DNA from: Escherichia phage EC.P2
Sequence record: PQ631072.1
Direction: 5' to 3' (one strand)
DNA length: 64,000 nucleotides
Below the pieces are notes generated by a model. The model saw only the letters and a program-made list of their open reading frames with translations. It did not search any database and was not told the origin of the DNA. The position numbers were made by a program, and so were the translations under genes. Shown here in pieces: positions 2,277-64,000 of the stretch (position 1 is the first letter of the stretch; every line of letters begins with the position of its first letter).

Positions 2277-2291
2277 AATTACTACAGATTG

Positions 2292-2370: not shown

Positions 2371-2428
2371 ATAAATACCTCCCTTCTGGTGTAATGATTA
2401 AATTGCATTGACACTTCAAGGAACTCAT

Positions 2429-2511: not shown

Positions 2512-2516
2512 ATTAT

Positions 2517-42086: not shown

Positions 42087-42774
42087 TTAGTCGTTCCTCC
42101 GCTTGTTTAAAAATATTTACATCGGCTTCACAGCCTAAGTATTCTCTACCTGTTAAAAGTGCCGCAACTTGTGTTGTTGCACTTCCAGAGAAGAAGTCTA
42201 AGACTACATCTTCTTCGTTGGTATGTATATTAATAAGGTCACAAAACAAAGTCAAGTGTTTTTGTGTTGGATGAAAACGATCTGCTCCTTGATAGATAGG
42301 ATACTCAAACACACCCTTATGATAGGAAGCATTGAAGGTTGGCTTCGAACCTTTAACACAGACAATAGCCATCTCTTTAGCGTTACTAAGGTAGTTAACA
42401 CCACTGTTGATGGGTACAGGGTTTGTTTTAATCCATTCAATAGTACGGAACATACGAAAACCAAGCGGTTCAAGGATTTCACGTAGCTCCTGGATCTTCC
42501 AGATATCATACCAAACTATGCAAGTACCACCTTTTCTAAGCACCCTATAGGCTTCTTTGAATACTTCTTTAAAGTAAGGAATATCTACAACATCCCAGTC
42601 ACCAAAGTTGTAAGATACACGGAATCTATCTGTATCTTTTCCAGTAGGCTCTCCAGATTGAAAATTTGTGTCACGAGAAATAGCATAGGGTGGGTCAGTA
42701 AGAATCAAATCTACACTATTGCTTTCGAGGGTTTGCAGGTAGTTTAATGCGGTGTTGTTTACAAATTCGCTCAT
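42043..42774 (-). CDS. DNA methyltransferase, beta-class (N6-adenine or N4-cytosine)
   Basis: Motif IV DPPY near N-terminus (LILTDPPYA) followed by motif I FFSGSATT near C-terminus; AAGGAG RBS. Confidence 0.85.
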   Translation of the reverse strand: MSEFVNNTALNYLQTLESNSVDLILTDPPYAISRDTNFQSGEPTGKDTDRFRVSYNFGDWDVVDIPYFKEVFKEAYRVLRKGGTCIVWYDIWKIQELREILEPLGFRMFRTIEWIKTNPVPINSGVNYLSNAKEMAIVCVKGSKPTFNASYHKGVFEYPIYQGADRFHPTQKHLTLFCDLINIHTNEEDVVLDFFSGSATTQVAALLTGREYLGCEADVNIFKQAEERLNEYTEQQNHPESTD

Positions 42775-44971: not shown

Positions 44972-47551
44972 TCAGTGACAAGACGCCCATGAGTTACCAA
45001 CATCGTAACCAGCAGTGAGAGGTACATTAAGATTGTAATACTCACCAGCTTTATTAACAGCGATAGATGCTAATTCTCCAGCACGACTGTAGGCTGTAAA
45101 CCAACCACCTTTCGGAGATTCATGTACGTTAGCCCAAATCTTGCCAGTACGTTTCTCTTCCTCTTCTTTCCAGGCGTTAACTTTATCCAAACATTCTTTA
45201 TCAATTTTCTTTTGTTCTTCTGGATCATCAACTTGAGTCCAACCTAAAGATTCTTTAGAGAACCATTTAAAATGCACGAGATCACGAGTTACTTCAAGCT
45301 GTGCTTCATCGTGATATGCAATCATTTGTTGAACGAATGACTTATTTTTCCAGTCATCAACAAAAAAGTCAACAGCTAATCCTTCTTCTTCGATAAGATC
45401 ATCGTAGATAACCATTGCTCTTTTTGCACAAATAACACCACCACTCTGGAACAGAGAGTTAAGTATTGCGTGTGCAGATCGTGTAGGTACTTTCCTTCCA
45501 TCAATACCAAGAATGTATTTCTTACCTGTTTTAACCCAAAAGTCATGCAGACGTTCTTTAAGAAGCGCAAGAGGTTTTGCAGCTTCCCAGAAAGCATCGT
45601 ATACAAGCTGTCCTGTATACATATCACTACCAATAGTTTTTGCTACTTTTGCAGCTTGAGCACCATAAGTAATACCATACTTAACAGATTTAGCAGGGCT
45701 TCGTTCAAACTTACGACCAATAGTGTCAGAAATACGTCGAGCCATCATTGTATGAACATCATTAGGTTTTTCCAACAATAGAGCATTACAATATTCGTGT
45801 GGTTCCTGCTCGTACCGCCAACAGTAGTGTGATTCTATTTTTGCCTCAAGAGAATCAAAGTCATAACCAATTTGGAAGTATTTTGGAACTTCTACACCAA
45901 ATAAGTTACGCATTTCATATCCGTACAGAGATGTTACACGTGGGATATTTGCTACTAACCTATGTTTCATACGAGACGTAGCTGCATCACACGTTGCAGC
46001 AGGAGTTGGTATACGACCATCAGCCCTTACTGCCGCCAGATAACCTTTATCGTAATCCTCTTCATCTTCTTCCCAATCAGCGCCACCCCCTAGAATAGAG
46101 TTTCTACGATGTTTATACGTAAGATACTGCACAATCTGCGTAGCATAAGGAAACTTTTCACCTAGTGCTTCCAAGTTAGGACAAATATCCTTCTCTTGCC
46201 CTTTTGTAAAGGAAGGGTTAGTAAGCACTTTAACACCACGACCTTTAGCTTTAGCAATACGATCTCTTAGTTTCCATTCCAAAGTTTCTGGTGTGCACTC
46301 CAGATGATCACATCTGTCCTGGCAGAAGTTAGATGCTAATGTTTGATCAACATAGTCACGAATAGCTTTCTCCATTTGTGCTTCATCTTTCTTAATCTTA
46401 GTGCCAGATTTAAGAGTGATATCTTTATCTTTATATTCAGATGGACTCCAACCTAAACCAACTAACCAATTTTTAATATGTGTAGTGTCGTCTAAAGTAG
46501 CAGGTACTGTAGGATCACAAATAGGTTCTTCTGCTGGAATAGGTAGTTTAAACTCTTTACCTAATGCAAATAACCACCAACCATCTTCTTTTTGTACAAG
46601 TTCACCAGAATGTTTCTCTGCAAACTTTATCATGTTACTTGAAGGTTCACCATTCTTTTTAAACTGTAGTTTAGGTGGAATGAATGATTTCAAATAACCT
46701 TTAGTAGCAGGTTTAGGAGGTAGTACAGGTTCTGCCTCTAAACGACATGCTTCCATTCGAGCATCCAGATCACGAATATTATCTTCTGCTTGTTTCATAT
46801 TGAAAGCAAAGCCACGGTGCTCTTGACGTGTAATAATATCAGCTACACGTTGTTCTAAGTTAAATGGTTCAGACCACTTATTATAATCACCCCACTCTTC
46901 CATCAAATAACGGAACACTGCGGTGTTAGCTTTGTTATCGTAAATACAGTAATACAGCATATCTGCTGCAAATGTTCTAAATCTTTCAGTTTCAGGAATG
47001 TTTTTTCTAAAATCAATTTTAACATCCCCTCCAGCTTTCTTAGATAACTCTGCCAGACTATGACCACCGAAGCGATCAGGGTTTAGTGTCTTACTTAAGA
47101 TCATAGTATCACAAATTTCAATGTTACTATTACCCCAAGTATTGTACTTAATACTGTAGTTGAGTTTAAAAAATAATTTAATTGCCAGTAAGTCGAAGTT
47201 AATGATGTTGTGTCCAACTACTTTGGTAATTTTATAGTTTGAATTACCTTTAAATTTACCTGTTCCATTTACAAAATCAGGAAAATCTTTAAGAGGGAAA
47301 TGGGTATATTCTAAATGCTCATATTCCTCCAGTCGGTATTCATACTTTCCGTCAGTCTCAATATACGGACGACCATCGAAAAGATATTTATCACCATCAT
47401 GGAAAGCAATAATCTCTCCAGTATCATGACTTTCACACACAATACAGTGCATTGCAAAACTATCTTTTAAACGATATGGACTTGCCAAGTAATCTACACT
47501 TTCGTCATTAAGCAAGTTGTTACTTTCAATGTCGAAAGTAAAAGCTCCCAT
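44972..47551 (-). CDS. DNA polymerase, family A, with 3'-5' exonuclease domain
   Basis: Exo I motif FDIESNNL at N-terminus; motif B-like K..YGITYG; motif C-like YHDEAQ; AGGAGG RBS. Confidence 0.85.
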   Translation of the reverse strand: MGAFTFDIESNNLLNDESVDYLASPYRLKDSFAMHCIVCESHDTGEIIAFHDGDKYLFDGRPYIETDGKYEYRLEEYEHLEYTHFPLKDFPDFVNGTGKFKGNSNYKITKVVGHNIINFDLLAIKLFFKLNYSIKYNTWGNSNIEICDTMILSKTLNPDRFGGHSLAELSKKAGGDVKIDFRKNIPETERFRTFAADMLYYCIYDNKANTAVFRYLMEEWGDYNKWSEPFNLEQRVADIITRQEHRGFAFNMKQAEDNIRDLDARMEACRLEAEPVLPPKPATKGYLKSFIPPKLQFKKNGEPSSNMIKFAEKHSGELVQKEDGWWLFALGKEFKLPIPAEEPICDPTVPATLDDTTHIKNWLVGLGWSPSEYKDKDITLKSGTKIKKDEAQMEKAIRDYVDQTLASNFCQDRCDHLECTPETLEWKLRDRIAKAKGRGVKVLTNPSFTKGQEKDICPNLEALGEKFPYATQIVQYLTYKHRRNSILGGGADWEEDEEDYDKGYLAAVRADGRIPTPAATCDAATSRMKHRLVANIPRVTSLYGYEMRNLFGVEVPKYFQIGYDFDSLEAKIESHYCWRYEQEPHEYCNALLLEKPNDVHTMMARRISDTIGRKFERSPAKSVKYGITYGAQAAKVAKTIGSDMYTGQLVYDAFWEAAKPLALLKERLHDFWVKTGKKYILGIDGRKVPTRSAHAILNSLFQSGGVICAKRAMVIYDDLIEEEGLAVDFFVDDWKNKSFVQQMIAYHDEAQLEVTRDLVHFKWFSKESLGWTQVDDPEEQKKIDKECLDKVNAWKEEEEKRTGKIWANVHESPKGGWFTAYSRAGELASIAVNKAGEYYNLNVPLTAGYDVGNSWASCH

Positions 47552-48047: not shown

Positions 48048-49820
48048 TTAATAAGAACCATCAGGAATATTCTCTGGGTTACTTGTGTATTGATCGTAAT
48101 CGTGAAGTGTCGCTGTTTTAATCTCATAGAAGAAACTACCTGCTGCACCAGTCTCTGAGAACTCACGGTTCTTTAGAATGTAGCAATATGTGCGGTTACG
48201 TTCCATAGGATCTTCAGCTTGTTTATCACGCTCCAGCGCAATTGTGATACCAGCACCTTTAGCAAGGAAGCTACTACCCATTGCATCATCTTCTACAATA
48301 TGTTCATTACTATTGTTAGAAGACTTTTTAACGTGTGAAATTACAACAATGGTAATTGCGTACTCTTTCATAATGCGTTTGAGCCACGTCGCAAGTTCCT
48401 CTTGTTGTGACACGTCCATACCAGAAAGCAAGTCAGAATAAGGGTCGATAACAAGAATGGTTACTCCGAAATAAATAATCATTTCCAGAACCTTCTCTTT
48501 AATCACATCTACGTTAGCTCCACGATCATCACAAACATAGAAACGTGGTGTTCCATCTTCTCGTTCGTAAAAATCACGAATCTTTTCTTCATTATCTTTT
48601 AAAATCTTTTCCTTCTCTTCTTTTGTTTTACGGTGAAGAGGGATGTGCAAGAATGAAGACAGTAAGTTACGAGAATACTTCTTATACGTTGCCTCCAAAG
48701 ATAAAATACCAAGAGTATGTTCTGGGTGTGCAAGAATAATGTGCTTTGTAATCTCGTTAACCAACAGTGTTTTACCGATACTTGTTTTTGCAAGTATAAC
48801 AGTAATTTCTTCTTCTACCAAGCCTCCACCTAACATATTAGAAGCAACACGCATGAATGGAGGAAGGGTAATCATTTTAGCTTCCAGGCATTCCAAGGCT
48901 GCTTCATACAGTACGTTAGAAGCATAAACACCAGCAGGTGTGTACAGTTTAGCTTTGAAAAAGCGATCAAGAAAGTGATCAATTTTTCCTTCTACTAGTG
49001 CCTGGTTAGGATCTTTAACATCCGTTAGTTCCATCACGTAAACTTTATTACGTGGTAAGATTTTAACACATTTCTCAACTGCTGCACGTCCAGCTTCATC
49101 ATTATCCATACACAGAACAATCTTTTTAAATTGATCTAAGAATTTATAACGATGTTGAAGCTGCTTATGCAGAGATGTTTCGCCACAAGTACCAGATACT
49201 ACAGCAGGAACAGGATATTTACCGCCCTTGTTATAATCTTTTAGCATCTGTGTTGCAGCCAGCATATCGTGTTCACCACCAACGATTAGAATAGTACCGC
49301 TGTGGTTACGATATTTAAACTCCCCAAAAAGATCACAATCCTTCCCTGTTTCACCAATAGGATGCGAAAAATCTTTTGGATCGATACGTTGTTTATACCC
49401 AGCAATATTGTAATCTTTAGTTGTAGGGTATAGTGTTGAAATTACTTCGCCAGTAGCTTCATCGTACATATAGCGTACACCGAAAGGTTTAGAGATATCT
49501 TCACGAATACCGCGATAACCTTTTGGATTAGTTCCAGTGCTGGCTTTTAGTTTATCATGTACTTCTGGATTAAACTCACTACCCAAGATATCCTCCTCTT
49601 CAATTTCTTCGCCGTGTGCATTTAACCATTTTTGATCAGGGATAGTAAAGCCACAAGAAAAACAATGTGCGCCTCGATGGTCTTCATCGGCATCTAAGCC
49701 ATATACCATCAAATTGTTTTGTGATCGATCACGCCCTCCTTTCATACAACGAGGACACCCAGTATGTCCTTCTTGACTTAGATCAATGTTATACCCATAT
49801 TTATTTACAACATAAGACAC
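48048..49820 (-). CDS. DNA primase-helicase (zinc-finger/TOPRIM primase fused to DnaB-like helicase)
   Basis: N-terminal CPRC...CFSCG zinc ribbon, TOPRIM-like acidic motifs, C-terminal Walker A (KTSIGKT) and Walker B (ILVIDPYSD); GTG start with AGGAG RBS. Confidence 0.8.
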   Translation of the reverse strand: MSYVVNKYGYNIDLSQEGHTGCPRCMKGGRDRSQNNLMVYGLDADEDHRGAHCFSCGFTIPDQKWLNAHGEEIEEEDILGSEFNPEVHDKLKASTGTNPKGYRGIREDISKPFGVRYMYDEATGEVISTLYPTTKDYNIAGYKQRIDPKDFSHPIGETGKDCDLFGEFKYRNHSGTILIVGGEHDMLAATQMLKDYNKGGKYPVPAVVSGTCGETSLHKQLQHRYKFLDQFKKIVLCMDNDEAGRAAVEKCVKILPRNKVYVMELTDVKDPNQALVEGKIDHFLDRFFKAKLYTPAGVYASNVLYEAALECLEAKMITLPPFMRVASNMLGGGLVEEEITVILAKTSIGKTLLVNEITKHIILAHPEHTLGILSLEATYKKYSRNLLSSFLHIPLHRKTKEEKEKILKDNEEKIRDFYEREDGTPRFYVCDDRGANVDVIKEKVLEMIIYFGVTILVIDPYSDLLSGMDVSQQEELATWLKRIMKEYAITIVVISHVKKSSNNSNEHIVEDDAMGSSFLAKGAGITIALERDKQAEDPMERNRTYCYILKNREFSETGAAGSFFYEIKTATLHDYDQYTSNPENIPDGSY

Positions 49821-49832
49821 ATGATTCTCCTA

Positions 49833-50102
49833 CTAAAATGATTCGTTTGTCTCCATAATATATTGCATTTCCAAATCTTCCATATGTTTCTTAAATTGGT
49901 AAACAATTTCCGATGGGGAAATATCTATATCAAAAAGTTCTTTTGTACCAGAATAGAACCTAATACCATCAACAATAAGGCCACCATAATAATCCCAATC
50001 ACTTTCTCGTGAGAAAGGATTAGGTTCTTCATAATAGTAATCTACTTCAACAATAATAGGTTCTTTATTATCTTGTTTATACTCAAAATCAAAAGTGTTC
50101 AT
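49833..50102 (-). CDS. hypothetical protein (89 aa)
   Basis: ORF whose stop overlaps the upstream gene's start codon. Confidence 0.4.
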   Translation of the reverse strand: MNTFDFEYKQDNKEPIIVEVDYYYEEPNPFSRESDWDYYGGLIVDGIRFYSGTKELFDIDISPSEIVYQFKKHMEDLEMQYIMETNESF

Positions 50103-51046
50103 TATAAATCCTCGATAAGCAGTCTGCGGGTTTCATTTAAATCATCAATATTGTAGTTATCTCTTACATACTTAGCAAGAGCTAATCCTTTCTCAATACA
50201 AACATCAGGAGATTCGATTAAGTATTCTACAACATCTTTCCACTCTTTAACTGAATCAGCAAAGAAGATTAGATCTTTAAATTCTTCAGTATAGTAGTTC
50301 TCTCGTGGAGAACAAACGAGTGGCAAACCTTTAGCACCAGCCTCAAGAATTTTTAAATTACTTTTGGCATTATTAAAATGATTATTTACTAATGGAGCTA
50401 TGGAGATTTGATGACCATCGTATGCCTCCATATAACACTCATAAGGACGAATACCTTCATAAACACAATCTGGTTGAATCTCTTCTTTAATTTGCAACCA
50501 TTGAGCACTACTTAACTCTTCGTGATCTCTACGAAATCCACATAACGTTAAATCTTTACCAAAAGTAGGAAGAATTGCTAAATCATGTTTATGTGTTTCA
50601 CTTCCCGCCCAAACCAGTGGGCTTTTAGAATAACGATCTTTAGTAAGAACAAACTGCCCTTCATCAAAAGGTAGTCCGTTAGGCACAATATGTACATTAT
50701 CATTGTATTGGCTTAATTCAACCTTTAATGCTGGAGTTGTTGTAGTTACAAGATCGCTTCTTTCAAGGAACCATTTTAGGTCATCTCGGATTTGATTTTC
50801 AAATAATCCTTCCAACATATGCCCTTCAGGAATAATTAAAGAATCATCCAGATCCATTACCAATTTAAACCCAAGTTGTTTAAGAGCCAGGAAACCTGGC
50901 TTTCCACGAGTTGGTACTCCATTGAACACAAAAATATTATGCTTAGGATTAATGGTCAGTTTGCGTTTATATGGCAAAATGATTCTATGAAAATCACATA
51001 CACTATACCTTTCATGTCCACGTGTGTCAAGAATAATATTAGGCAT
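50102..51046 (-). CDS. glycosyltransferase, GT-B fold (GT4-like), paralog 1
   Basis: Motifs ...VHIVPNGLPFDEGQF... and ...KILEAGAKGLPLVCSP... match the GT4 NGVD and E-x7-E/PVIA signatures; paralogous to 51058 ORF. Confidence 0.55.
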   Translation of the reverse strand: MPNIILDTRGHERYSVCDFHRIILPYKRKLTINPKHNIFVFNGVPTRGKPGFLALKQLGFKLVMDLDDSLIIPEGHMLEGLFENQIRDDLKWFLERSDLVTTTTPALKVELSQYNDNVHIVPNGLPFDEGQFVLTKDRYSKSPLVWAGSETHKHDLAILPTFGKDLTLCGFRRDHEELSSAQWLQIKEEIQPDCVYEGIRPYECYMEAYDGHQISIAPLVNNHFNNAKSNLKILEAGAKGLPLVCSPRENYYTEEFKDLIFFADSVKEWKDVVEYLIESPDVCIEKGLALAKYVRDNYNIDDLNETRRLLIEDL

Positions 51047-51057
51047 ATGGCTCCTTG

Positions 51058-52032
51058 TTAAAGACTTTCAATAACTTGACGACGCAGTTCATTGGCATCT
51101 GCAAGATTATAATTAAGACGAACGTGTTCTGCAAGCATCATACCACGATCTTCTGTGTATCTAGGGTTCCTCATTAGCTTGACAACTTCATAATGCCAAG
51201 ATGCTTTAGAATCTGCATAGATAACAGCCTTTGCATCTACCGGATTGAAGTACGGCAGCACAGGAGAACAGATAATAGGAAGACCCTTTGCACCTGCTTC
51301 CAAAATCTTCAAATTGCTTTTACAGTTGTTGAAGTCATTATCTACCAGAGGAGCAATTGCAATACTGTGACCGTCATACACAGACATATACTCACCTAAA
51401 TTTTTAATAGCTGGTTTATACTGTGCATTTGGAATTTTACGTTTTACTTTAACCCACTCCGCAGTAGTTAGATACTGACTATTATTTCCAACAGGTGCAG
51501 AAGGATACACTTCATACCCTGCAATTGTCAATAGTGTATCATCAAATGTATTAGCTACAAGAGATAAATCAGGTTCATGGCTTGCTCCTCCAGCCCAAAT
51601 AATAGGCGTGTCAGAATAACGGTCTTTTGTCAAAGTAAATTGACCTTCATCGTAAGGTAGTGCGTTTCTAATAACGACAACATTACGATTTAAATGACGA
51701 ATTTTGTAAGCCAGGTATTCTGTTGTTACAGTAACAACATCTGCTAACTTAATCATCTCTACAATAGTCTTTGAGTGATTAGTAAATACGCCAGCCATAT
51801 AATGTTCAGGATTAAGCGAATAAAAGTCATCTAAATCAACAATAATCTTAACACCTTGTGCCTTCAGGCGTTTAACTTCGTCTGATCCACGAGAATACAC
51901 TCTATTAAAAACTAAAACGTCTTTCTTAGGCTTAAACGTATTTCCCGCAAATGGCATTACAATACGATGGTAATCACAACCACTGCCTAACTTATTATCA
52001 CACTTAAGTACAGGGGTATTAGGATTTACCAT
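51058..52032 (-). CDS. glycosyltransferase, GT-B fold (GT4-like), paralog 2
   Basis: ADVVTVTTEYL...VVVIRNALPYDEGQF...KILEAGAKGLPIICSP; start moved to the Met that aligns with the paralog's N-terminus. Confidence 0.55.
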   Translation of the reverse strand: MVNPNTPVLKCDNKLGSGCDYHRIVMPFAGNTFKPKKDVLVFNRVYSRGSDEVKRLKAQGVKIIVDLDDFYSLNPEHYMAGVFTNHSKTIVEMIKLADVVTVTTEYLAYKIRHLNRNVVVIRNALPYDEGQFTLTKDRYSDTPIIWAGGASHEPDLSLVANTFDDTLLTIAGYEVYPSAPVGNNSQYLTTAEWVKVKRKIPNAQYKPAIKNLGEYMSVYDGHSIAIAPLVDNDFNNCKSNLKILEAGAKGLPIICSPVLPYFNPVDAKAVIYADSKASWHYEVVKLMRNPRYTEDRGMMLAEHVRLNYNLADANELRRQVIESL

Positions 52033-52705
52033 ATTTTTGAGCCTCCTCATAAGAGATAAAAGTTTTACCATTGCGAAGATCCTCCAGTGATTGTTTATAT
52101 TGTTCCCAGTTTACACCAATCCCCTGTTCTTTCTCTTCTTTTGACAGATTTGCAAAAGGTAAAGGATTATCTCCAAACACATCGTCAGGATGGATAAACG
52201 CCATAATTCGAATAGGGCATGGTACGCCGTGAATACCTCGGTTCAAACCTGCTAGTGGAACACGCTGAATCCACTCTGCATCTTCATATCCATAACCGTG
52301 GGTGTATGAGCGGAAATAGCCAGCTTTCTCAATAACTGCACGGGAATACATACCAAACTGGCACATACCTAGTTCCCAAATAACCACTTCACCTTCAATA
52401 CCTTTTACTTTATCTTTAAAATATTCAGGCATACCAAAGAAATCCCAGCCATTTTCCTTAGCCTGTTTTACAAAATATGTTTCCCAACCTGGCACAACCG
52501 GATAGCAATCATCATCAAAAATAAACCAGTAATCATACCCTTCATCATAAAACTTTTTCATCAGTTCATTACGGGCATATGCAACACCTTTTCGTTCCCG
52601 ATCATACTGTACAACAAAAGTAGCATTAGGATCAGTCACAAGATAATCTTTAAGAGGACGCTTACCTACAGTAATAACACCAACACCAATTTTTGTATTT
52701 TCCAA
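52019..52705 (-). CDS. glycosyltransferase, GT-A fold (GT2-like)
   Basis: TTG start; DxD-type motif FDDDCY and YGYEDAEW motif. Confidence 0.5.
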   Translation of the reverse strand: MENTKIGVGVITVGKRPLKDYLVTDPNATFVVQYDRERKGVAYARNELMKKFYDEGYDYWFIFDDDCYPVVPGWETYFVKQAKENGWDFFGMPEYFKDKVKGIEGEVVIWELGMCQFGMYSRAVIEKAGYFRSYTHGYGYEDAEWIQRVPLAGLNRGIHGVPCPIRIMAFIHPDDVFGDNPLPFANLSKEEKEQGIGVNWEQYKQSLEDLRNGKTFISYEEAQKYGKS

Positions 52706-52714
52706 AATAACTCC

Positions 52715-53278
52715 TTAAATAATTTTATTCATGTCTTGACAATGTAAAAGGTGTGAAACAGCTTTTCTAGGATCATCACTACCTAAACGGTATGTGTGAA
52801 ATAAATATAGCCCACGTAATAAACCTAGCCTTTTATTGTTAGCGTGTAATGCTTTAGAGAAAATTATATCAAACTGTATTGATCTTTCCTCAAAAGGGAT
52901 TTCATTCCACAGACTCTTACGAAAGAGAAGAAAGAATCCTGCTAAGATAGCATCTGTAGGTACTTCCTCTATTGAGTTTCCCCATTCTAGATGTGCTCTT
53001 TTTGCAATCTCAATGTGGTGTAATATATTTGGATCTTCACTTCTTTCATTATTAAATAATTGATATGTTGATCCCAATCTATTACAAGATGCACCAAGAA
53101 CATCAAAATCAGGATTTGAACGGACTATTGATTCCAACCAAGCAGGTTGTTCTGGAAGAAGAAACATTGTATCAATGTCTCTTAGGCAAATCCAACTATC
53201 TTCTGGTAAGACACTTATTGTGTCATTGATACCTTTTCCAATATCTCCAGAAAGATAGGGAGTTATGTGAAATATCAT
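52715..53278 (-). CDS. glycosyltransferase-like protein (putative)
   Basis: Weak GT-A-like features (DID acidic motif); adjacent to three glycosyltransferases. Confidence 0.3.
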   Translation of the reverse strand: MIFHITPYLSGDIGKGINDTISVLPEDSWICLRDIDTMFLLPEQPAWLESIVRSNPDFDVLGASCNRLGSTYQLFNNERSEDPNILHHIEIAKRAHLEWGNSIEEVPTDAILAGFFLLFRKSLWNEIPFEERSIQFDIIFSKALHANNKRLGLLRGLYLFHTYRLGSDDPRKAVSHLLHCQDMNKII

Positions 53279-53335
53279 ACTCCCTCCGTATTATTACTTT
53301 AGCATTTTTAGACTAAAAAGTCCAAATGGTTTTAC

Positions 53336-53530
53336 CTATTGATTACGTTTTGCGAGTTCCATCTGGATAGCTAAACTGTGATCTCGTGCTTCCATATACT
53401 CTTTATATGTTTCATTAAGATGATCACGACAAACATCACGCAGTTTAATCAGTTTATCTGTAGGGATACCACTAAGATCATCCCAAGATTTTACAACTTC
53501 ACCAGTATCATTGATCCCAATGGTTTTCAT
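53336..53530 (-). CDS. hypothetical small protein
   Basis: 64-aa ORF. Confidence 0.35.
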   Translation of the reverse strand: MKTIGINDTGEVVKSWDDLSGIPTDKLIKLRDVCRDHLNETYKEYMEARDHSLAIQMELAKRNQ

Positions 53531-53738
53531 CTACAACCTCCTTAATTGCTACAGCACAGTTTTTGCAGATACACTGCCCTTTACCTTTAGAAATCTGGAT
53601 GTAAGGTTCATTTTCATTTTCGCCCTTACGTGAGTCATATATTACAGAATTGAAGCACACAACGCAAATATTTTTTAAGATTGTATACTTATCAACTTTC
53701 TTTTTTGTTTTAAAGTTAACTTCAATAACATCAGCCAT
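53508..53738 (-). CDS. small zinc-ribbon protein
   Basis: CVVC...CICKNC four-Cys arrangement; start set at Met overlapping upstream stop (ATGA). Confidence 0.4.
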   Translation of the reverse strand: MADVIEVNFKTKKKVDKYTILKNICVVCFNSVIYDSRKGENENEPYIQISKGKGQCICKNCAVAIKEVVDENHWDQ

Positions 53739-54026: not shown

Positions 54027-54536
54027 TTAGCGATAGAATTGATGTTCTTTGTAGCGGTACACTAGAACCATATCTTTTTCCCAGTGTGCTCTTATTGTAG
54101 ATTTTTTAAAGTATAATGCTCCTTTTGTAATATCTAATGCAATTCGTAATTCTGGAAAATGGTTATCGAGATAAAGTAGACGTTCTGCTATAGCTTTAGC
54201 GTCTTTCCACTTATCGTGTTCCATAACGTTGAATGTCTTCGTGTAAGAGAATTGTCCTTTTTGAAACAAAACTTCTTTTATAGTATCAGGGAAATATGAA
54301 TCTCTCGCCCTATTCAATACTACATTACCAACAGCAGACATACCGCGCTTTCCTTGATTACGACTTTCTGCATAGATTGCACAAGCTAATAGATTTTCTT
54401 TACTATCACGCTTTGTACACTTGTGAACTACTTTAGCAGTTTTTACGTTTGCAGCTTCGGCTTGCGCCACAACAGGTGTAAATGTAAAAGCAGTTAAGGA
54501 TAGTAACGCAATTGCGACAAAGGTTTTTATTGACAA
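54027..54536 (-). CDS. secreted cell-wall hydrolase, SleB/CwlJ (Hydrolase_2) family
   Basis: N-terminal signal peptide (cleavage near AQA/EA); LLACAIYAESRNQ...GNVVLNRA...QFSY matches Hydrolase_2 signature; TTG start with AGGAGG RBS. Confidence 0.7.
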   Translation of the reverse strand: MSIKTFVAIALLSLTAFTFTPVVAQAEAANVKTAKVVHKCTKRDSKENLLACAIYAESRNQGKRGMSAVGNVVLNRARDSYFPDTIKEVLFQKGQFSYTKTFNVMEHDKWKDAKAIAERLLYLDNHFPELRIALDITKGALYFKKSTIRAHWEKDMVLVYRYKEHQFYR

Positions 54537-54598
54537 ACTTGCCTCCTATTTTGTTAAACGAACTTTTATTGTAACACAGAAGAGGCTATTTTGCAAGT

Positions 54599-54620
54599 GG
54601 AGGGGGATAATCCCCCTCTT
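54599..54620 (-). terminator. hairpin terminator
   Basis: GGAGGGGGA-TAA-TCCCCCTC hairpin just downstream of the 54629 ORF stop. Confidence 0.45.
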
Positions 54621-54628
54621 ACACTCTG

Positions 54629-55231
54629 TTAGATATTGTAAACCTTTGTATGAGTTACTACACCATCTTCTACAAAATCAATACGTTCTTGATCCGTAAC
54701 TAGTGCAGACAACACTTTAAATTTAATTTTTACACGTTCAAAAGCTGGTTGACCATCTTTAAGATAATTATGTTCAGTTGTCACTGTCTTGTTTACAAAA
54801 TCAACTTTTGCTTTACCGTTCTCGCGTAAGTGGAATGTTTTTCCTGCTTTATACACAATTTCAACATTACCTTCGAGAGTAATTCCTTCAAAAAGTTCAC
54901 CCTCTTCTTCATTTTCTTCACTTTTGAACAGACGACGAAACTCTTCCATATCAAGATAAACAACATCTTCAGAATAACTATCAGTAAGATATGTCTTACC
55001 CTCCATTAACCCGAAATATTGCCAGATTGCCGAATAAACATCACTAGATGATCCAAGGGTTTCTCTGAGTTTAGTTCCACGGATTACTTCATAAACTTCA
55101 AAATTGAAACCAGACTGCAAAGCATCAAACAGCACATCACTAACTTCTAAAGCATAATCTTCATTGTTGTCAATATCTACAAGAAAATTACCGCTACGAA
55201 TAAGTTTTTGACCTTCTAAAGTAATACTCAT
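54629..55231 (-). CDS. hypothetical acidic protein (200 aa)
   Basis: ORF with AGGAG RBS downstream of TerD terminator. Confidence 0.45.
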   Translation of the reverse strand: MSITLEGQKLIRSGNFLVDIDNNEDYALEVSDVLFDALQSGFNFEVYEVIRGTKLRETLGSSSDVYSAIWQYFGLMEGKTYLTDSYSEDVVYLDMEEFRRLFKSEENEEEGELFEGITLEGNVEIVYKAGKTFHLRENGKAKVDFVNKTVTTEHNYLKDGQPAFERVKIKFKVLSALVTDQERIDFVEDGVVTHTKVYNI

Positions 55232-55257
55232 TGTTTTCTCCTCTTTTATTTCAAATA

Positions 55258-55273
55258 TGCGCCCCGAAGGGCG
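55258..55273 (-). terminator. hairpin terminator after terD-like gene
   Basis: GCGCC-CCGAAG-GGCGC hairpin. Confidence 0.45.
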
Positions 55274-55295
55274 CTATGATTTATTACTTGATGTA

Positions 55296-55892
55296 TTACT
55301 CGAACCAATCGTCGCCAGCGCCAAACGCTTTAACTACATCGTAAATGTCAAGCCCAGCTTTACCTACACCATATGCTTTCAGTTTCCATTCGCTATCTTC
55401 TCGCACCAGGGAGGCAACGTGGCAAATGGTGTTACCTGCAAGTTCTGGAGCCAAGAAGTCAAAGTCCAGCAGTTCAACATTACGTTCATCATCGAAGATT
55501 TTAAGGAAACCTTCGGTAGCGTGACCAAGGCGTTTCTTACCCGTTTCGTCATCAATAGTAATTACGAATGCAATTTCCTGTGCTTCAGCAGAGATATTAT
55601 CCAGTGTAACATCAATCTGCTCCATCTGTCCTACACCATCACGAACATCTTCACCTGCAAAAGTAGAACGTTCAGGATCAAATTTCTGTGCGTAGCACAC
55701 CAGGTGACGAGGAGACAACAGTTCCGGCAGACCAGATGCATTGTGTCGGCAAATCAGAGCACTAACATCCAGATCCAGTTTTTCGTTAGATTTCCAAGAG
55801 AATTCCAGACGAATGCGTTTCAGTGCTGGTGCGATCTTTTTCAGAGAAACTTTTTCGCTAGAACCTTTTTTCAGGGAAATTTTCTGAGTCAT
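55296..55892 (-). CDS. terD: TerD-family protein (tellurite-resistance/stress-response TerD domain)
   Basis: ISLKKG...VSLKK, LDLDVSAL, AFVITIDDE, and C-terminal SEWKLKAYGVGKAGL segments follow the conserved TerD domain blocks. Confidence 0.65.
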   Translation of the reverse strand: MTQKISLKKGSSEKVSLKKIAPALKRIRLEFSWKSNEKLDLDVSALICRHNASGLPELLSPRHLVCYAQKFDPERSTFAGEDVRDGVGQMEQIDVTLDNISAEAQEIAFVITIDDETGKKRLGHATEGFLKIFDDERNVELLDFDFLAPELAGNTICHVASLVREDSEWKLKAYGVGKAGLDIYDVVKAFGAGDDWFE

Positions 55893-55965
55893 AATTTATT
55901 ATCTCCTTTGTTGTTAATTTACGTTGTCTATTTTACTAATCTTTTCTACAAAGTCAAGCGTTTTT

Positions 55966-56760
55966 TTACGCTTTTGCTCCGAATTTTTTAACCCACTCAC
56001 CAAACTCTTCAGATAACAATTTATCGTAAAGTTCTTCATCAGACAAGGACAAATCTGCAATACCGATAAAATCAACATTATCGTACTCTTTTGCCAAGTC
56101 TTTCAGGAATTTAAAGTTTGCATTACCTACACCAACCATAAACCAGTAAACAGGCGTATTGCGGTGTTTGTTCAGTAAGCTACGTACTGCTGAAGTATCC
56201 ATGTTTTCCCCGTCAGTTTGGAAGAAAATCATTGCAGGAGTACGATCAACTTGTGCATCAGTGTCTACAACCTGTTCTACAACAGTACGTGTTACTTCTA
56301 CAAGTTCTTTTTTACCAGTTAGTTTAGCAAGGAAACCCTTAGCTGGGACTTCTTCATACTCAACGACTTCGCGTGTAATATTTTTCATAGGTACACTACC
56401 GAAGTATGTATCATAGATCTCCTGCATTACTGGAGCATAAGCAGTACCACCATTGATGCAAACATTAGACATGCAAGAGCCGACATAATCATCATACACA
56501 TCAGCCGTTGCAGGAGGCAGTTCAAAAGAAGAACTATTGAAAGCCCACATGTCAATCTGTGCATTGTCATCAAACTTCATACCAAACGGCAGCAGTTTAC
56601 CTACAAAATCACTAACAGTGCCATCACGATACAGCTCACACATACTACCCGAAATATCTAAGGCGCTACCGACACGAAGAACAACATCGTTAATCTTTTT
56701 CTTACGCAGAGATACAGTAAGAGTTTCTTGACGTTTTTTAAGACTGATTTTATTGGACAT
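55966..56760 (-). CDS. vWA-domain protein (TerF/TerY-like)
   Basis: MIDAS-type motif LDISGSM in first 40 residues; adjacent to terD-like gene. Confidence 0.55.
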   Translation of the reverse strand: MSNKISLKKRQETLTVSLRKKKINDVVLRVGSALDISGSMCELYRDGTVSDFVGKLLPFGMKFDDNAQIDMWAFNSSSFELPPATADVYDDYVGSCMSNVCINGGTAYAPVMQEIYDTYFGSVPMKNITREVVEYEEVPAKGFLAKLTGKKELVEVTRTVVEQVVDTDAQVDRTPAMIFFQTDGENMDTSAVRSLLNKHRNTPVYWFMVGVGNANFKFLKDLAKEYDNVDFIGIADLSLSDEELYDKLLSEEFGEWVKKFGAKA

Positions 56761-56761
56761 A

Positions 56762-57031
56762 TTATTTCTCCTTTCTGAGTGTAATGTTAGTAACTTCTAA
56801 ATCCACTTCTACCATTTCTGTATCATATGAAATACAGCTAAGTTGACCTCTTTGTGAACCGTTCAGACACATTGCTTGGTTTGTATTAACTTTAATAAAC
56901 ACTAAGTTTCTGAACGTATCTAAACCAGAATCTTGATACGCAACATAATATACGAATGTATCACCTGCGTCAAGTTCTCCAAAACATTTAGGTTCATCTG
57001 ATTTATCGTCTTTGATATTAAATTTAAGCAC
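56762..57031 (-). CDS. hypothetical protein (89 aa)
   Basis: ORF in track, tightly coupled to neighbours. Confidence 0.4.
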   Translation of the reverse strand: MLKFNIKDDKSDEPKCFGELDAGDTFVYYVAYQDSGLDTFRNLVFIKVNTNQAMCLNGSQRGQLSCISYDTEMVEVDLEVTNITLRKEK

Positions 57032-57587
57032 TGTCTTCTCCTTTACCTGCCCTCCAGCCTAAATAGAAAGCCTCTCTGGTGATCTTTTGCAACTCGTTTA
57101 AAGAGATAGTTACAACTAAATTATCTTCAATTTCTAGCTTTGAGTCTTCTTCTGTCTCAATGCAAGTATTATGCACTTTGTGGTAAGGATTGTCAACACG
57201 TTTAAATTTATTATTTTCAGTGCTGAAGAAGCAATCTGGATCTTCTTCTCCATCACCCCAACCCTGGTTAGGGTCTTCTTCAGATCTTTCTGTTGGGATC
57301 TCACCTGTAAAGTGCTCTTCTAATACCATAGCGATACCATCTCCAAGATCGGAAGAGAACATCAAATTACAAACTTCTTCCCAAGGCATAGACCACTTAA
57401 ATCTTTTACGATTACCATGTTTATCTTCTTCGTTAGAGAAAACACTACCATAGCTATCATAATTGCCATACATCTCTTCAACAACTTTACCACCTTTCAA
57501 AAGAAATAGGTAGCAAGGAGAACCATCGAAAGAGGTAGAAAGAGCAGCATTGCCAGACTCTTTGCACAAGAAACTAAAACACCCCAT
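57024..57587 (-). CDS. hypothetical acidic protein (187 aa)
   Basis: ORF in track. Confidence 0.4.
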   Translation of the reverse strand: MGCFSFLCKESGNAALSTSFDGSPCYLFLLKGGKVVEEMYGNYDSYGSVFSNEEDKHGNRKRFKWSMPWEEVCNLMFSSDLGDGIAMVLEEHFTGEIPTERSEEDPNQGWGDGEEDPDCFFSTENNKFKRVDNPYHKVHNTCIETEEDSKLEIEDNLVVTISLNELQKITREAFYLGWRAGKGEDSA

Positions 57588-57787
57588 TATACACCAGCCT
57601 TAAGATCAATTAAAGCCAAAGTTGTTTCAGAATGTGTTTGCTCGTCTACAGGTGCAGTCATATGATAATACAAAAAGTCTTCGGCATCATACCAATCTGA
57701 TTCTTGACCTTGTTTCCAACCATCAATGAAAGCATCCTCCATAATGGTTTGTAATTCTTCACGAGTTAAGTGAATATCTTTATTCAT
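57587..57787 (-). CDS. hypothetical small protein
   Basis: ORF in track, start/stop overlaps with neighbours. Confidence 0.35.
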   Translation of the reverse strand: MNKDIHLTREELQTIMEDAFIDGWKQGQESDWYDAEDFLYYHMTAPVDEQTHSETTLALIDLKAGV

Positions 57788-58020
57788 TACACATTCTCCT
57801 CTTTTACCAATTCCATCGTTGAACTATCAAAACCATCTTTAGAAGAATAGGTATAGACAGAACGTAGTTCTCGCAGGACAGTAAATACATTAGGATCATC
57901 TAACCAAGCATCCTGGAGGAGAACATAACGATCTTCATTGTCATACTGGACAGCAATCATAGAACCAGACAGTTTGTAAATTTTAATATTCATAATATAT
58001 TTCTCCTTAAAGTAGACCAC
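57787..58020 (-). CDS. hypothetical small protein
   Basis: ORF in track. Confidence 0.35.
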   Translation of the reverse strand: MVYFKEKYIMNIKIYKLSGSMIAVQYDNEDRYVLLQDAWLDDPNVFTVLRELRSVYTYSSKDGFDSSTMELVKEENV

Positions 58021-59110
58021 GTTTAACAGTTTGAATCATACCATCTTCAAGAGATTGCACTTCTTGAATGTAATCAATACGAGCAGCACGGGCTTCAGTG
58101 TTGATTCGGTTAGTTTCTTCCAACATTTTAACTAAGTTTTCTTGATCGCGACGTAATGTTTCAATATCCAATACTTGACGATTAGCAAGTTGCGTAGCTT
58201 CAATTTGGTTTTGTGCAGCCAGATCACTACCCATTGCAATAGCAGCATTAAATTCATTCAGTACATTGTTCTGTGTATCGGCTGCTTTCTTCTGGCGTAG
58301 ACTTTCAATATACATAGAAAAGTTTGCAGAGTAAGCAGGAATAACATTATTCACAATATTACGGGCTGATCGCATCAAACTTGCAGATACTTTCTGCATA
58401 CTTTGTACACGTGGCCCCATCTGAACACACAGTAAACGCAAGGCTTTCAGGTCTGCAATACGAATTTCAAGCAGATCCATAGTATCACGAGTACGTTGAC
58501 GCTCTTCTACTTCATTTTCAGGTAGTGTATTAAGGCGAACTTCTTCTTTTTCATAAGTAGCTGTTAGAAGCTCTATATCCCTGTTTAAGCTAAGAGCATA
58601 TTTTGCAATAGCCTCTTCTAAACGTTGCAGATATCGTAAAGAATCTTCTTCTTTTTTCAAGTCTGTTTGGAGTGTCTTTACCAAACCTTCAATACGATTA
58701 TTGATGGTGTCAAATTCACCAAACAAATCTTCTTTCATACCTAATACTTTCTTAACTAGTTTACCTAAGCCTTTAGATTGTTTAATAGAATTAGGATCAA
58801 GTTGCTTTGCTTGCTTAATAAGTGCAGTTAAACGCTCACTCATTTCATCTCCCTGAGATGAACGCTGGTGTTTAAGCACTTCCGCATTAAGGTTACGAAG
58901 AGTAAGTCCTGCATCAGCACCAACCTGTTCAATCTCTTCACGAGACATTGGAGGCAGCATTTGTACAGGTCGTGCAACAGCAGGGGCATATACAGGGCTT
59001 GCATCCATAGCAGTTGGAGCAAACAAAGACTTACTTTTTTCTGTTGTTGCCGTGAATACACTCATTTCAGACGGTTTGCTTTTTACGGCACTGATAAAAG
59101 GACTGGACAT
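58007..59110 (-). CDS. TelA-like (toxic anion resistance family) protein, tentative
   Basis: 367-aa mostly helical, charged protein between the vWA/TerD and TerC genes; family assigned from context and size, not from a verified motif. Confidence 0.35.
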   Translation of the reverse strand: MSSPFISAVKSKPSEMSVFTATTEKSKSLFAPTAMDASPVYAPAVARPVQMLPPMSREEIEQVGADAGLTLRNLNAEVLKHQRSSQGDEMSERLTALIKQAKQLDPNSIKQSKGLGKLVKKVLGMKEDLFGEFDTINNRIEGLVKTLQTDLKKEEDSLRYLQRLEEAIAKYALSLNRDIELLTATYEKEEVRLNTLPENEVEERQRTRDTMDLLEIRIADLKALRLLCVQMGPRVQSMQKVSASLMRSARNIVNNVIPAYSANFSMYIESLRQKKAADTQNNVLNEFNAAIAMGSDLAAQNQIEATQLANRQVLDIETLRRDQENLVKMLEETNRINTEARAARIDYIQEVQSLEDGMIQTVKRGLL

Positions 59111-59178
59111 TCAATTTCCTCCATATTCTTTAGTAGATGGTGATACCTCTGTACCACCATCATAACACAAATTAAGTA

Positions 59179-60030
59179 TTAAACAAACATATCTAAATAA
59201 TTTGTAGTAATAAATGCTCCATCTGCTTCCAGATTAACATAACCAGTAGCATTAGTGGTTAAGAAATCCAGATCGAAGGACTCTTTAACACCCCGTACCT
59301 CAACACGAGAGATATCGAATACAGGTAGTGTAACAGCCTCTTCGTGCAATACCGTACCTTTGTAGGTTGCCTTAATGATAAACTTGATATTACCCGTTCC
59401 CGCATCATACAAAACACTTTCAAAGCCTTTGAGAGTATACTTATCACCAGAGGTGAAGTGCAAAGTTGCTTTGTTTACAGTACGTTTTTTACGAGGAGTT
59501 CCTTTCACACGTTTATGATCACTACGTTTTTTGTATTTAGGAATGAATACAAACGATACACTCTCAAGAAAAGTATCAACATCAAGGATTTTAATATCCT
59601 CTGTTGCAGCAAATTTTGAAGTCGTTGCATCAAAATGCTTTGCTCTGCGATCATACATAAAGATATCAAACCGATCTTCTAAATCAAACAAATTGTGTAT
59701 CTTAATTTCAGAATGCTTGCACATTGCAGCAACCTTAAACTCTTCAAAACGTGGGTGTTCTACAAGCTCTTCAAGTTTTACACCAAAGACAGTATATTGT
59801 TTCGAAGTTTTTTCTGGCGTTGGCATTACAGAAGCATAATCACCGATTGCGCTTTTAAAGCAAAATTGTTCTTGACCTGTATTTTTACCAACGAATTTAC
59901 AGTATTCGTCATCGTGCATACTTTCTTTGGTAGTACCAACAAACTCAAAACCATCTTTATTCTTCTCAAGAATTTCTTGATTAAAGATCCAACCTTCCAG
60001 GCGATACACTTTACCAACTTCTAGTTTCAT
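59179..60030 (-). CDS. hypothetical protein (283 aa)
   Basis: ORF in track. Confidence 0.45.
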   Translation of the reverse strand: MKLEVGKVYRLEGWIFNQEILEKNKDGFEFVGTTKESMHDDEYCKFVGKNTGQEQFCFKSAIGDYASVMPTPEKTSKQYTVFGVKLEELVEHPRFEEFKVAAMCKHSEIKIHNLFDLEDRFDIFMYDRRAKHFDATTSKFAATEDIKILDVDTFLESVSFVFIPKYKKRSDHKRVKGTPRKKRTVNKATLHFTSGDKYTLKGFESVLYDAGTGNIKFIIKATYKGTVLHEEAVTLPVFDISRVEVRGVKESFDLDFLTTNATGYVNLEADGAFITTNYLDMFV

Positions 60031-60065
60031 CTGTTTCTCCTTCTTATTTAATCTGTATTAAATTA

Positions 60066-60656
60066 TTAACGACGACGTGAGCTACTAAAACTACGTTTCG
60101 ACGAAGAATAACTTTTCGAAGACTTACTATAAGAGCTAATAGGGCTTGAGTAAGACTTACGAGCAGAGTAATTACTATTCACTTTTGTTGTTGATGGGCG
60201 TGAATACGTTTGTACACTTTGCTGCTTAATTGTGTTTTGTTTAGTGGTTGTATATGTATTCCCTTGTTTATCATAAAAACTATGCTTTTGTGTTGTATAT
60301 GCTTTACTATTAGTTGTAGGAGCAGCGTTGTTATTGATAATTGTTGTATTGCTACCGCCATCTCTATAACCACCACCGCCACTATTACCACTCAACATAT
60401 GACCAAGAAGCATACCTGTAGCAAATTCACCTACACCAGAAGAACCACTGCCGCCTCCTTGCACAACAACTGTTGAAGGTTGTGCAGGTGCTGCTTGAAC
60501 AACTTGAGGTGCAGGTTGATTTACATATTGTTCATCTACCATCTGATTTGGTGTTTGTTGGTAACGTTGGTTTTGTACATTTTCAGAATCATCACAACCT
60601 ACCAGCAATGCACTACCTAATACAACTGCAACAATAAAAGATTTAATGTTTTTCAT
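60066..60656 (-). CDS. lipoprotein, Gly-rich with Ser/Tyr/Lys-rich C-terminus
   Basis: Start set at Met with GAGAGGG RBS; signal peptide with lipobox LVGC. Confidence 0.5.
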   Translation of the reverse strand: MKNIKSFIVAVVLGSALLVGCDDSENVQNQRYQQTPNQMVDEQYVNQPAPQVVQAAPAQPSTVVVQGGGSGSSGVGEFATGMLLGHMLSGNSGGGGYRDGGSNTTIINNNAAPTTNSKAYTTQKHSFYDKQGNTYTTTKQNTIKQQSVQTYSRPSTTKVNSNYSARKSYSSPISSYSKSSKSYSSSKRSFSSSRRR

Positions 60657-60849
60657 TTGTAACCCTCTCATTTAAAGTCTCAACACAATTTTTAAAATCT
60701 CTAGAGAAACAATACATCTGTTCTCCGTTCCTGTTGATAGTAATTGTATGGTTATCAACATATGTTGTCAAGATAAAAATCAAACAAAATAACCCTAAAG
60801 CAAAACAAATATTTTCAAACAGAATCCAAAGAACACGTAAAACCACCAT
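60643..60849 (-). CDS. small membrane protein (tentative)
   Basis: 68-aa ORF with one hydrophobic helix. Confidence 0.3.
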   Translation of the reverse strand: MVVLRVLWILFENICFALGLFCLIFILTTYVDNHTITINRNGEQMYCFSRDFKNCVETLNERVTNEKH

Positions 60850-60864
60850 CAGATCACCTCAACA

Positions 60865-60882
60865 AAGCCCCCGAAGGGGCTT
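60865..60882 (-). terminator. hairpin terminator after terC-like gene
   Basis: Minus-sense AAGCCCC-TTCG-GGGGCTT, identical to plus hairpin at 38764. Confidence 0.5.
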
Positions 60883-60888
60883 AATGAA

Positions 60889-61866: not shown

Positions 61867-61943
61867 TCTTTTCTCCTCTTTAATGCGGAGGACAATCCTC
61901 CGCTCTATGTCGTATACTATAAACTGTTTTTAAAGAAAGTCAA

Positions 61944-62192: not shown

Positions 62193-62206
62193 ATAAAGAT
62201 CCTCTC

Positions 62207-62413: not shown

Positions 62414-62422
62414 ACTTTCTCC

Positions 62423-63989: not shown

Positions 63990-64000
63990 TAATAAGTTCC

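Follow-up and report, generated by a model that had tools for sequence, protein, structure and literature searches.

The 64,000-nucleotide (nt) stretch of Escherichia phage EC.P2 analysed here (record PQ631072.1; hereafter the window) carries four predicted glycosyltransferase (GT) genes, named P4, P3, P2 and P1 in their order of transcription, which fill positions 50102 to 53278 as tightly packed minus-strand open reading frames (ORFs) beside the genes for a primase-helicase and a DNA polymerase (Table 1). The locus is a phage-encoded multi-transferase glycan cassette of a kind already known. We consider it highly probable that the acceptor is not DNA and that the cassette assembles a glycan placed elsewhere, and we tentatively propose that this glycan decorates the phage's own virion proteins.

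EC.P2 is a lytic (virulent) 147-kb myovirus. Its region 49800-53600 is 99.5% identical to that of Escherichia phage vB_EcoM_PHB05, and the locus is 98-99% identical to that of more than 50 other Justusliebigvirus (phi92-like, Stephanstirmvirinae) genomes, including EmilieFrey/Bas61, Paula and phi92; in EmilieFrey/Bas61, Paula and PATM the cassettes are intact and 98.3-98.4% identical to that of EC.P2. All four proteins match PHROG 'glycosyltransferase' families (E 1e-79 to 1e-149), listed by PHROGs under 'moron, auxiliary metabolic gene and host takeover', and all four are kept in the sister genus Phapecoctavirus at 66-76% amino-acid (aa) identity. Because of these matches and this conservation, we take P1-P4 to be real genes rather than chance ORFs. 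They have long been known as glycosyltransferases: the 2012 phi92 record labels gp163-166 as TreT-fold, GT-B-fold, ppGalNAc-T2-fold and GT-fold. NCBIfam and PADLOC scans gave no matches. Five records named 'Campylobacter phage' with C. jejuni as host (MG065639, MG065645, MG065656, MG065689 and MG065650) are 98% identical at the locus to E. coli Justusliebigvirus or Phapecoctavirus phages, and their host labels look doubtful.

The spacings along P4, P3, P2, P1, the 89-aa ORF and the primase-helicase gene are 9, -14 or -53, 11, -1 and 12 nt, the start of the 89-aa ORF overlapping the P1 stop by 1 nt. P3 begins at a TTG six bases behind an AGGAG. The start of P2 is ambiguous, since GGAGG-type ribosome-binding sites precede both candidate ATGs; the inner one is annotated in phi92 gp164 and the outer one in EmilieFrey. 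Because the genes are so closely spaced and a scan found no terminator-like site between P4-P1 and the primase-helicase gene, the cassette is predicted to share one transcription unit with the primase-helicase and polymerase genes and to lie upstream of both. A scan for sigma-70 promoters and terminators did no better than on shuffled sequence (58 sites, against 46.9 +/- 7.5), and transcription units are not definable from it. The earlier note on this DNA, made from the letters alone, had recognized these four ORFs on their correct coordinates, and its description of two GT-B paralogues, a GT-A enzyme with a DxD motif and a fourth GT-like ORF holds. It had also placed them downstream of the primase-helicase and polymerase, which is true of plus-strand coordinates but not of transcription.

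Table 1. Features of the cassette, its surroundings and the loci compared with it. Coordinates are those of the window unless another sequence is named.
Feature	Position	Strand	Remarks
P4	52715..53278	-	187 aa; DxD (D34-x-D36-T37), GT-like; phi92 gp166 orthologue; first cassette gene
P3	52019..52705	-	228 aa; GT-A, DDD64-66 and E141-D142 invariant; phi92 gp165 orthologue
P2	51058..52071	-	337 aa (ATG 52071) or 324 aa (ATG 52032); GT-B, GT4-like; phi92 gp164
P1	50102..51046	-	314 aa; GT-B, GT4-like; P2 paralogue; phi92 gp163 orthologue
Backbone ORF upstream of cassette	53336..53530	-	64 aa; phi92 gp167 orthologue; PVP-SE1 RefSeq gp005 homologue
Backbone ORF downstream of cassette	49833..50102	-	89 aa; phi92 gp162 orthologue; PVP-SE1 RefSeq gp007 homologue
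Primase-helicase	48048..49820	-	Follows the 89-aa ORF after 12 nt
DNA polymerase	44972..47551	-	After primase-helicase
N6/N4 DNA methyltransferase	42043-42774	-	Pfam N6_N4_Mtase, E 6.7e-30
Lateral tail-fibre protein	36790-38760	+	Four collagen-like G-X-Y runs, GDK/GEK/GPE type
Ter-type gene set	54027-64000	-	Just upstream of cassette
Hydrolase_2	54027-54536	-	Signal-like N-terminus
TerD	55296-55892	-	
vWA-TerF-like	55966-56760	-	
TelA	58007-59110	-	
Macro domain	62423-63256	-	
PRTase_3	63132-63989	-	
14-tRNA array	222-2592	+	Ser x2, Lys, Tyr, Asn, Thr, Gly, Gln, Pro, Phe, Leu, Met x2, Ile
EmilieFrey rmlA-D	EmilieFrey 116028-119289		Outside window; beside glutaredoxin and ribonucleotide reductase genes
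EmilieFrey 'thymidylate synthase'	L003:6840-7811 = EmilieFrey 124839-125810		Outside window; 323 aa, divergent ThyX-type
phi18:2 gp38	L010:5868-6335		Labelled 'DNA methylase'; matches Methyltransf_24
Burkholderia dolosa adhesin locus	L008:3025-8440		P1/P2 homologue, 411 aa, 36% identity
PVP-SE1 RefSeq gp006 and gp008	L016:5184-6041		109 and 84 aa; labelled 'DNA ligase'

Folds and families of the four transferases

By fold the transferases are ordinary GT-A and GT-B enzymes, P4 being a probable GT-A. P1 and P2 each have the two Rossmann-like domains and the C-terminal nucleotide-sugar site of GT4-like GT-B proteins, and neither departs from the family at any of the 17 columns that are invariant in an alignment of 36 sequences; these columns include R21, D67-D68, H76, N123, H152, D155, K228, S229, K232 and E235. 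Their Pfam group-1 matches lie at or below the cut-off and P2 matches PHROG 7162 (E 3.7e-149); the best structural matches of P1 are the GT4 enzymes PglA/PglH/WlaC, PimA/PimB, WaaG, WbnH and BshA. The two proteins are 41% identical (E 5e-83) and appear to have arisen by duplication. P2 is 48-52% identical to the single GT-B copy of related myoviruses, and because the lone GT-B protein of two such phages (metagenomic contigs L014 and L019) is closer to P2, P2 is the more ancestral-looking paralogue and P1 the younger-looking duplicate.

P3 is built on one Rossmann-like domain that carries a DxD motif of the kind used for metal and nucleotide-sugar binding, and its structural matches are TarP, TarS, RmlT, GlfT2 and AvpGT; it is classed as a GT2/GT7-like GT-A enzyme in which the DDD triplet is the predicted metal and nucleotide-sugar site. 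P4 matches PHROG 14179 (E 1.5e-112) and has no Pfam match of its own, and D34-x-D36-T37 is invariant across its family. An exhaustive profile search gave 1,177 P4-family representatives at 50% identity. Many of these are stand-alone proteins of about 180 aa and many others carry the P4-like region as the C-terminal domain of proteins of 370-660 aa; in a sample of ten members, seven had an extra N-terminal region (fusions) and three an N-terminal P4-like domain. The fusion partners include TOD1/MUCI70, GT2 and Methyltransf_24. In three of the ten, the P4-like domain is overlain by GT2-type Pfam matches, of which one exceeds the gathering score (Glyco_tranf_2_3 in P0133, 42.9 bits against a cut-off of 27; Glycos_transf_2 in P0123; Glyco_tranf_2_5 in P0154). 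Because GT2-type models align over the P4-like domain of these relatives, P4 is best read as a divergent GT2-like GT-A protein of a Pfam-less family. Profile-profile comparison of the P4 and P3 families by hhalign was not significant, and PDB sequence searches with P3 and with the P3, P1/P2 and P4 families returned noise or weak generic GT-B matches only. No membrane segment or signal peptide was found in any of P1-P4 (maximum 19-residue Kyte-Doolittle mean 0.83-1.21, whereas the signal peptide encoded by a neighbouring gene reaches 2.08).

Setting of the cassette and of its homologues

The genes on either side of the cassette belong to a backbone that is also present in PVP-SE1 (Vequintavirinae). 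By blastp the 64-aa ORF is 40% identical to PVP-SE1 gp005 (E 1e-9) and the 89-aa ORF 32% identical to gp007 (E 2e-11); PVP-SE1 has one 109-aa gene where EC.P2 has four transferases, and its primase-helicase and polymerase genes follow in the same order. Because the flanking ORFs match gp005 and gp007 with one small gene between them, the four-transferase cassette is an insertion into a conserved replication-gene backbone, and its nearness to the replication genes reflects the landing site of an accessory block. The 109-aa and 84-aa products of PVP-SE1 RefSeq gp006 and gp008 are labelled 'DNA ligase', which looks like an annotation error.

In the contexts read, adjacency of the cassette to replication genes is kept only in the Stephanstirmvirinae-like lineage and in L014 and L019. 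In both of these contigs the order is a P4-like gene, a nucleoside diphosphate (NDP)-sugar epimerase/dehydratase gene, a P3-like gene and one GT-B gene, followed by a gp162-like ORF, the primase-helicase gene and PolA, which shows that a nucleotide-sugar enzyme can sit inside such a cassette. A Klebsiella Stephanstirmvirinae phage carries a P3 homologue alone among early genes. A cellular origin in E. coli was considered and rejected, as megablast found no match (~85% identity or more) to the cassette in 5,426 complete genomes.

Homologues lie in or next to packaging or head modules in six contigs of unrelated small phages. In a phage contig of about 36 kb (L017), a P3-like GT-A gene and a P1/P2-like GT-B gene form a pair directly upstream of TerS, beyond which come genes for a probable TerL, portal, MuF, protease and capsid (MCP), the replication genes being on the opposite strand. 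A P1-like gene follows TerL immediately in L021, before large unannotated head-module genes and a prohead protease gene, and in L018 about 4 kb separate a P1-like gene from TerS downstream of it, with genes for a hexapeptide transferase and a GT2 enzyme immediately before TerS. P4-like genes occupy similar positions: in L023 one stands between TerS and TerL with TOD1/MUCI70 and Methyltransf_24, and in L011 one separates TerL from portal and is accompanied by GT2, polysaccharide deacetylase and two Methyltransf_24 genes. In Cellulophaga phage phi18:2 (L010), gp39, which joins TOD1/MUCI70 to a P4 domain, lies between the portal/minor capsid and the protease/MCP genes. The adjoining gp38 probably bears the wrong label and, by its Methyltransf_24 match, would be part of a head-module glycan cassette. 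In two further contigs (L009 and L012) the homologues belong to large glycan cassettes whose other genes encode a DegT aminotransferase, an epimerase, a radical-SAM protein or a GT-D enzyme, and L022 has a distant P1-like match in an uninformative context. No recognizable base-modifying enzyme was found in the homologue cassettes whose contexts were read. Outside its own lineage, the cultured-phage proteins closest to P3 by tblastn are more than 340 mycobacteriophage GTs. In Burkholderia dolosa, the P1/P2 homologue stands two genes downstream of an intimin/invasin-type adhesin gene (853 aa), after a gene for an unannotated 571-aa protein, and this may be an adhesin-glycosylation locus.

Candidate acceptors for the glycan

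Because homologous cassettes lie in head and packaging modules and because P3 has mycobacteriophage relatives, one or more virion structural proteins are the most likely acceptor, although the choice is a tentative one. We propose that in phi92-like and phAPEC8-like coliphages this cassette and RmlABCD together furnish the phage's own virion proteins with a short oligosaccharide that contains rhamnose, and put the probability of this proposal at roughly 0.35. Four soluble, cytoplasmic and co-transcribed transferases would form an accessory glycan-assembly cassette, in which P1-P4 would add three to four sugars stepwise from nucleotide sugars, in an order that we infer. One donor is probably dTDP-L-rhamnose made by the phage's own rmlABCD products. 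Attachment of the glycan to structural proteins would take place in the cytoplasm, while virions are being assembled or earlier, and would amount to the virion O-glycosylation described for Che8-type cassettes. The epimerase/dehydratase gene within the L014 and L019 blocks and the P4-family fusions to TOD1/MUCI70, GT2 and Methyltransf_24 are further signs of a glycan cassette.

Several points weigh against this proposal. Literature searches found no report of glycosylated Justusliebigvirus or phi92-like virions, and the EC.P2 cassette lies in the replication operon, not among late structural genes or in the packaging module. Direct homology of P1-P4 to Che8 gp108-110 was sought and rejected, as neither the searches nor the family hidden Markov models (HMMs) gave a match. 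Terminase-proximal sites commonly host morons and DNA-modifying enzymes, and the head-module context is thus suggestive only. The gene rmlC is present in the same phage set as the transferases (54 + 77 records, compared with 53-55 + 71-77); this co-occurrence is real but weak, and it does not count as independent evidence, since the carriers are all members of one subfamily and share common descent. In BclA, GXT repeats carry rhamnose glycans; BclA-like glycans on the collagen repeats of the EC.P2 lateral tail fibre were considered and rejected, the repeats being of the GDK, GEK and GPE type and not GXT.

The Cellulophaga phage and L019, which both have homologous transferases, encode collagen-repeat fibres too, perhaps by coincidence. 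Serine/threonine-rich C-termini are present in the sheath, portal and tape measure proteins and are not evidence for glycosylation. Atomic structures exist for the phi92 capsid, decoration protein and sheath (PDB 21uy, 21vm, 21wl).

The main rival to virion proteins as acceptor is the host envelope, which we regard as unlikely. Here the transferases, with dTDP-rhamnose, would extend or cap an undecaprenyl-linked or lipid A-core-linked glycan early in infection, the target being the lipopolysaccharide (LPS) core, enterobacterial common antigen (ECA), NGR or O-antigen precursors, with the result that the phage's own receptors are masked, superinfection is excluded and progeny are kept off debris. 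These phages depend on LPS core glucose plus ECA or NGR (PMC8594841; PMC11990801). The operon that the transferase genes share with the replication genes is an early or middle one, the PHROGs category includes host takeover, the GT4 enzymes that P1 resembles most closely in structure act on lipid-linked or small acceptors, and the structural matches of P3 named above are also consistent with an envelope role. Set against this are the lack of a membrane segment or signal peptide in P1-P4, with no Gtr-like flippase or membrane transferase seen, and the lack of any nucleotide-level match to the cassette in the E. coli genomes searched. Moreover, homologous cassettes within head and packaging modules, with sugar O-methyltransferases, fit virion decoration better than receptor masking.

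Another possibility, which we consider improbable, is that a small molecule or host protein is glycosylated, for example a Ter-cluster nucleoside-like metabolite or a host takeover factor. Clusters of Ter-associated PRTase, HAD and TerD genes have been proposed to make a nucleoside-like metabolite. In EC.P2, the TerD, vWA-TerF, TelA, Macro and PRTase_3 genes lie at 55.3-64 kb on the same strand as the cassette, and L014 repeats TelA, vWA-TerF, TerD, Hydrolase_2 and PRTase_3 next to the cassette, epimerase and primase-helicase genes. However, this synteny is confined to one lineage and may be inherited gene order, the transferase families occur without Ter genes in unrelated phages, and a set of four transferases suggests an oligosaccharide more than the addition of one sugar.

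It is very improbable that the transferases instead put rhamnose or other sugars on a hydroxylated or hydroxymethylated base of the phage DNA, as in T-even phages, RB69 and HY126; in a variant of this explanation, modification might be partial or fall on thymine rather than cytosine. The hypothesis has been raised and undercut in print. It draws on the operon shared with the primase-helicase and polymerase genes, on the proposal by Olsen et al. of rhamnosylation of hydroxymethylated nucleotides, made because rmlA-D lie beside glutaredoxin and ribonucleotide reductase genes (PMC7552041), on a divergent ThyX-like protein and a Dcm-like C5 methyltransferase in the EmilieFrey genome, and on sub-threshold matches of P3 to PHROG 842 and to Pfam TAGT, the latter shared with 11 of 15 family members (best E 6.8e-5, that of P3 itself).

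The published phenotypes of near-identical phages speak against DNA glycosylation, and in tendency decisively. Bas60-62 (Justusliebigvirus) were found 'exceptionally susceptible' to restriction-modification systems (PMC8594841). Picton et al. reported that BREX restricts Pau (Paula) and PATM about 10^7-fold, and neither is among the phages affected by BrxU, a GmrSD-type enzyme that cuts DNA containing 5-methylcytosine (5mC), 5-hydroxymethylcytosine (5hmC) or glucosylated 5hmC (PMC8565348). According to a 2026 preprint, Druantia III-A is effective against Stephanstirmvirinae; this system targets DNA that is unmodified or methylated and is blocked by other modifications. Literature searches found no nucleoside analysis of Justusliebigvirus DNA, and a rare or non-protective modification would be compatible with these phenotypes.

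An enzyme of the ThyA type that could make the acceptor hydroxyl is likewise missing from the annotation of EmilieFrey (98.3% identical at the locus). The hydroxymethylases and 5-hydroxy-dCMP synthases described so far are all ThyA homologues (PMC13326640). In the whole EmilieFrey annotation, the only thymidylate-synthase homologue is of the ThyX type (Pfam Thy1, phrog_85), with a THRxxSxxxxSxR motif in which THR replaces RHR and with no PDB relative at E<1. This protein probably works as an ordinary dTMP synthase. The annotation lists no hydroxymethylase or hydroxylase of the ThyA type. A search for TET/JBP gave none among the EmilieFrey proteins scanned (10 against Pfam and 10 against PHROGs, five of them in both, with most hypothetical proteins outside the scan). 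The methyltransferases that EmilieFrey encodes are Dam-like, N6 and Dcm-like.

Membership of P3 in the TAGT family was also rejected. P3 scores 23.3 bits against a cut-off of 27.5 (PF20691), the match covers residues 16-75 and profile positions 37-96 of 205, which is the nucleotide-binding and DxD segment only, and a TAGT-domain protein ranks 37th in a BFVD search with P3. The P3 family HMM detects Pacc40 gp98 (72.6 bits) and a small-phage GT-A protein (65.7 bits) but not T6 Ggt, a TAGT protein, and the P1/P2 family HMM does not detect T6 AGT, the alpha-glucosyltransferase. The absence of the cassette from the same backbone position in PVP-SE1, and the occurrence of homologues elsewhere in head modules with sugar O-methyltransferases and deacetylases, add to the case against DNA as acceptor.

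The earlier note had suggested glycosylation of DNA in the manner of T-even phages, and that analogy is undercut because the nearness to replication genes comes from an inserted cassette; the phenotypes of relatives, a relative's genome with ThyX only and the profile mismatch to the T6 enzymes contradict it further. Its remark that the window holds no hydroxymethylase or base-modifying enzyme is correct for hydroxymethylases and overlooks the N6/N4 DNA methyltransferase gene of Table 1, and the search that it advised for hydroxymethylase or thymidylate-synthase homologues elsewhere in the genome leads, in the EmilieFrey annotation, to the ThyX-type protein only. The evidence now favours the alternative that it had mentioned, modification of virion proteins or host glycans.

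Implications and comparison with known systems

If virion proteins are the acceptor, the cassette would provide the first case of virion glycosylation by phages that infect Gram-negative bacteria; we know of no earlier one. It would also link capsid glycosylation to the Pfam-less P4 family, which numbers ~1,200 clusters at 50% identity and comes largely from the head modules of uncultured phages. What would be new on confirmation is thus coliphage virion glycosylation together with a functional handle on the P4 family, whose recurrence with TOD1/MUCI70, GT2 and sugar O-methyltransferase genes in head modules makes widespread virion glycosylation a testable idea. Phages of the genera Justusliebigvirus and Phapecoctavirus infect a very wide range of hosts, and many isolates are obtained as candidates for therapy; should their virions carry phage-made glycans, immunogenicity, clearance and stability would be affected, as reported for glycosylated mycobacteriophages. 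More generally, glycosyltransferase genes beside replication genes, together with a dTDP-rhamnose pathway, do not imply hypermodified DNA.

Compared with bacterial GT4 enzymes (PglA/PglH, PimA, WaaG, BshA and sucrose-phosphate synthase), the GT-B proteins of the cassette share only 9-16% identity, and their N-terminal domain differs in having its own invariant set (R21, D67-D68 and H76). P1-P4 are not sequence members of the T4 AGT/BGT or T2/T6 Ggt (TAGT) families, and, in contrast to the T-even phages and to the 5-hydroxycytosine arabinosyltransferase systems of RB69 and HY126, the EC.P2 relative EmilieFrey is without a ThyA-type hydroxymethylase or hydroxylase. RB69- and T4-type phages have DNA that resists restriction (PMC13326640) and that BrxU cuts (PMC13390438), whereas the DNA of the EC.P2 relatives behaves like unprotected DNA and escapes attack by a modification-dependent nuclease.

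Resemblance to the capsid glycosylation machinery of chloroviruses and giant viruses is at the level of fold only, and those viruses are eukaryotic; in chloroviruses, PBCV-1 A064R combines two rhamnosyltransferase domains with a methyltransferase. The GtrABC systems of temperate phages likewise consist of phage-encoded glycosyltransferases, which alter surface glycans and block superinfection. They depend on membrane proteins (the GtrA flippase, GtrB and GtrC), whereas P1-P4 are without membrane segments and EC.P2 is virulent.

The closest comparison is with the mycobacteriophage cassettes, and virion glycosylation of the Che8 gp108-110 type was reportedly described by Freeman and colleagues in 2023. 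The capsid of Che8 has been reported to be glycosylated (PMC11256854). The EC.P2 cassette differs from the Che8 type in having a Gram-negative host, two GT-B enzymes and a complete rmlABCD elsewhere in the genome, and in its place within the replication operon instead of at the end of the late genes. As in the mycobacteriophage cassettes, several soluble transferases, GT-A and other, stand together without a partner for DNA modification. The more than 340 mycobacteriophage proteins already mentioned, such as Pacc40 gp98, whose virion role is putative, have a GT domain homologous to P3, and the P4-family cassettes carry Methyltransf_24, the family to which the methyltransferase domain of Che8 gp108 (GT2 plus Methyltransf_24/TylF) belongs.

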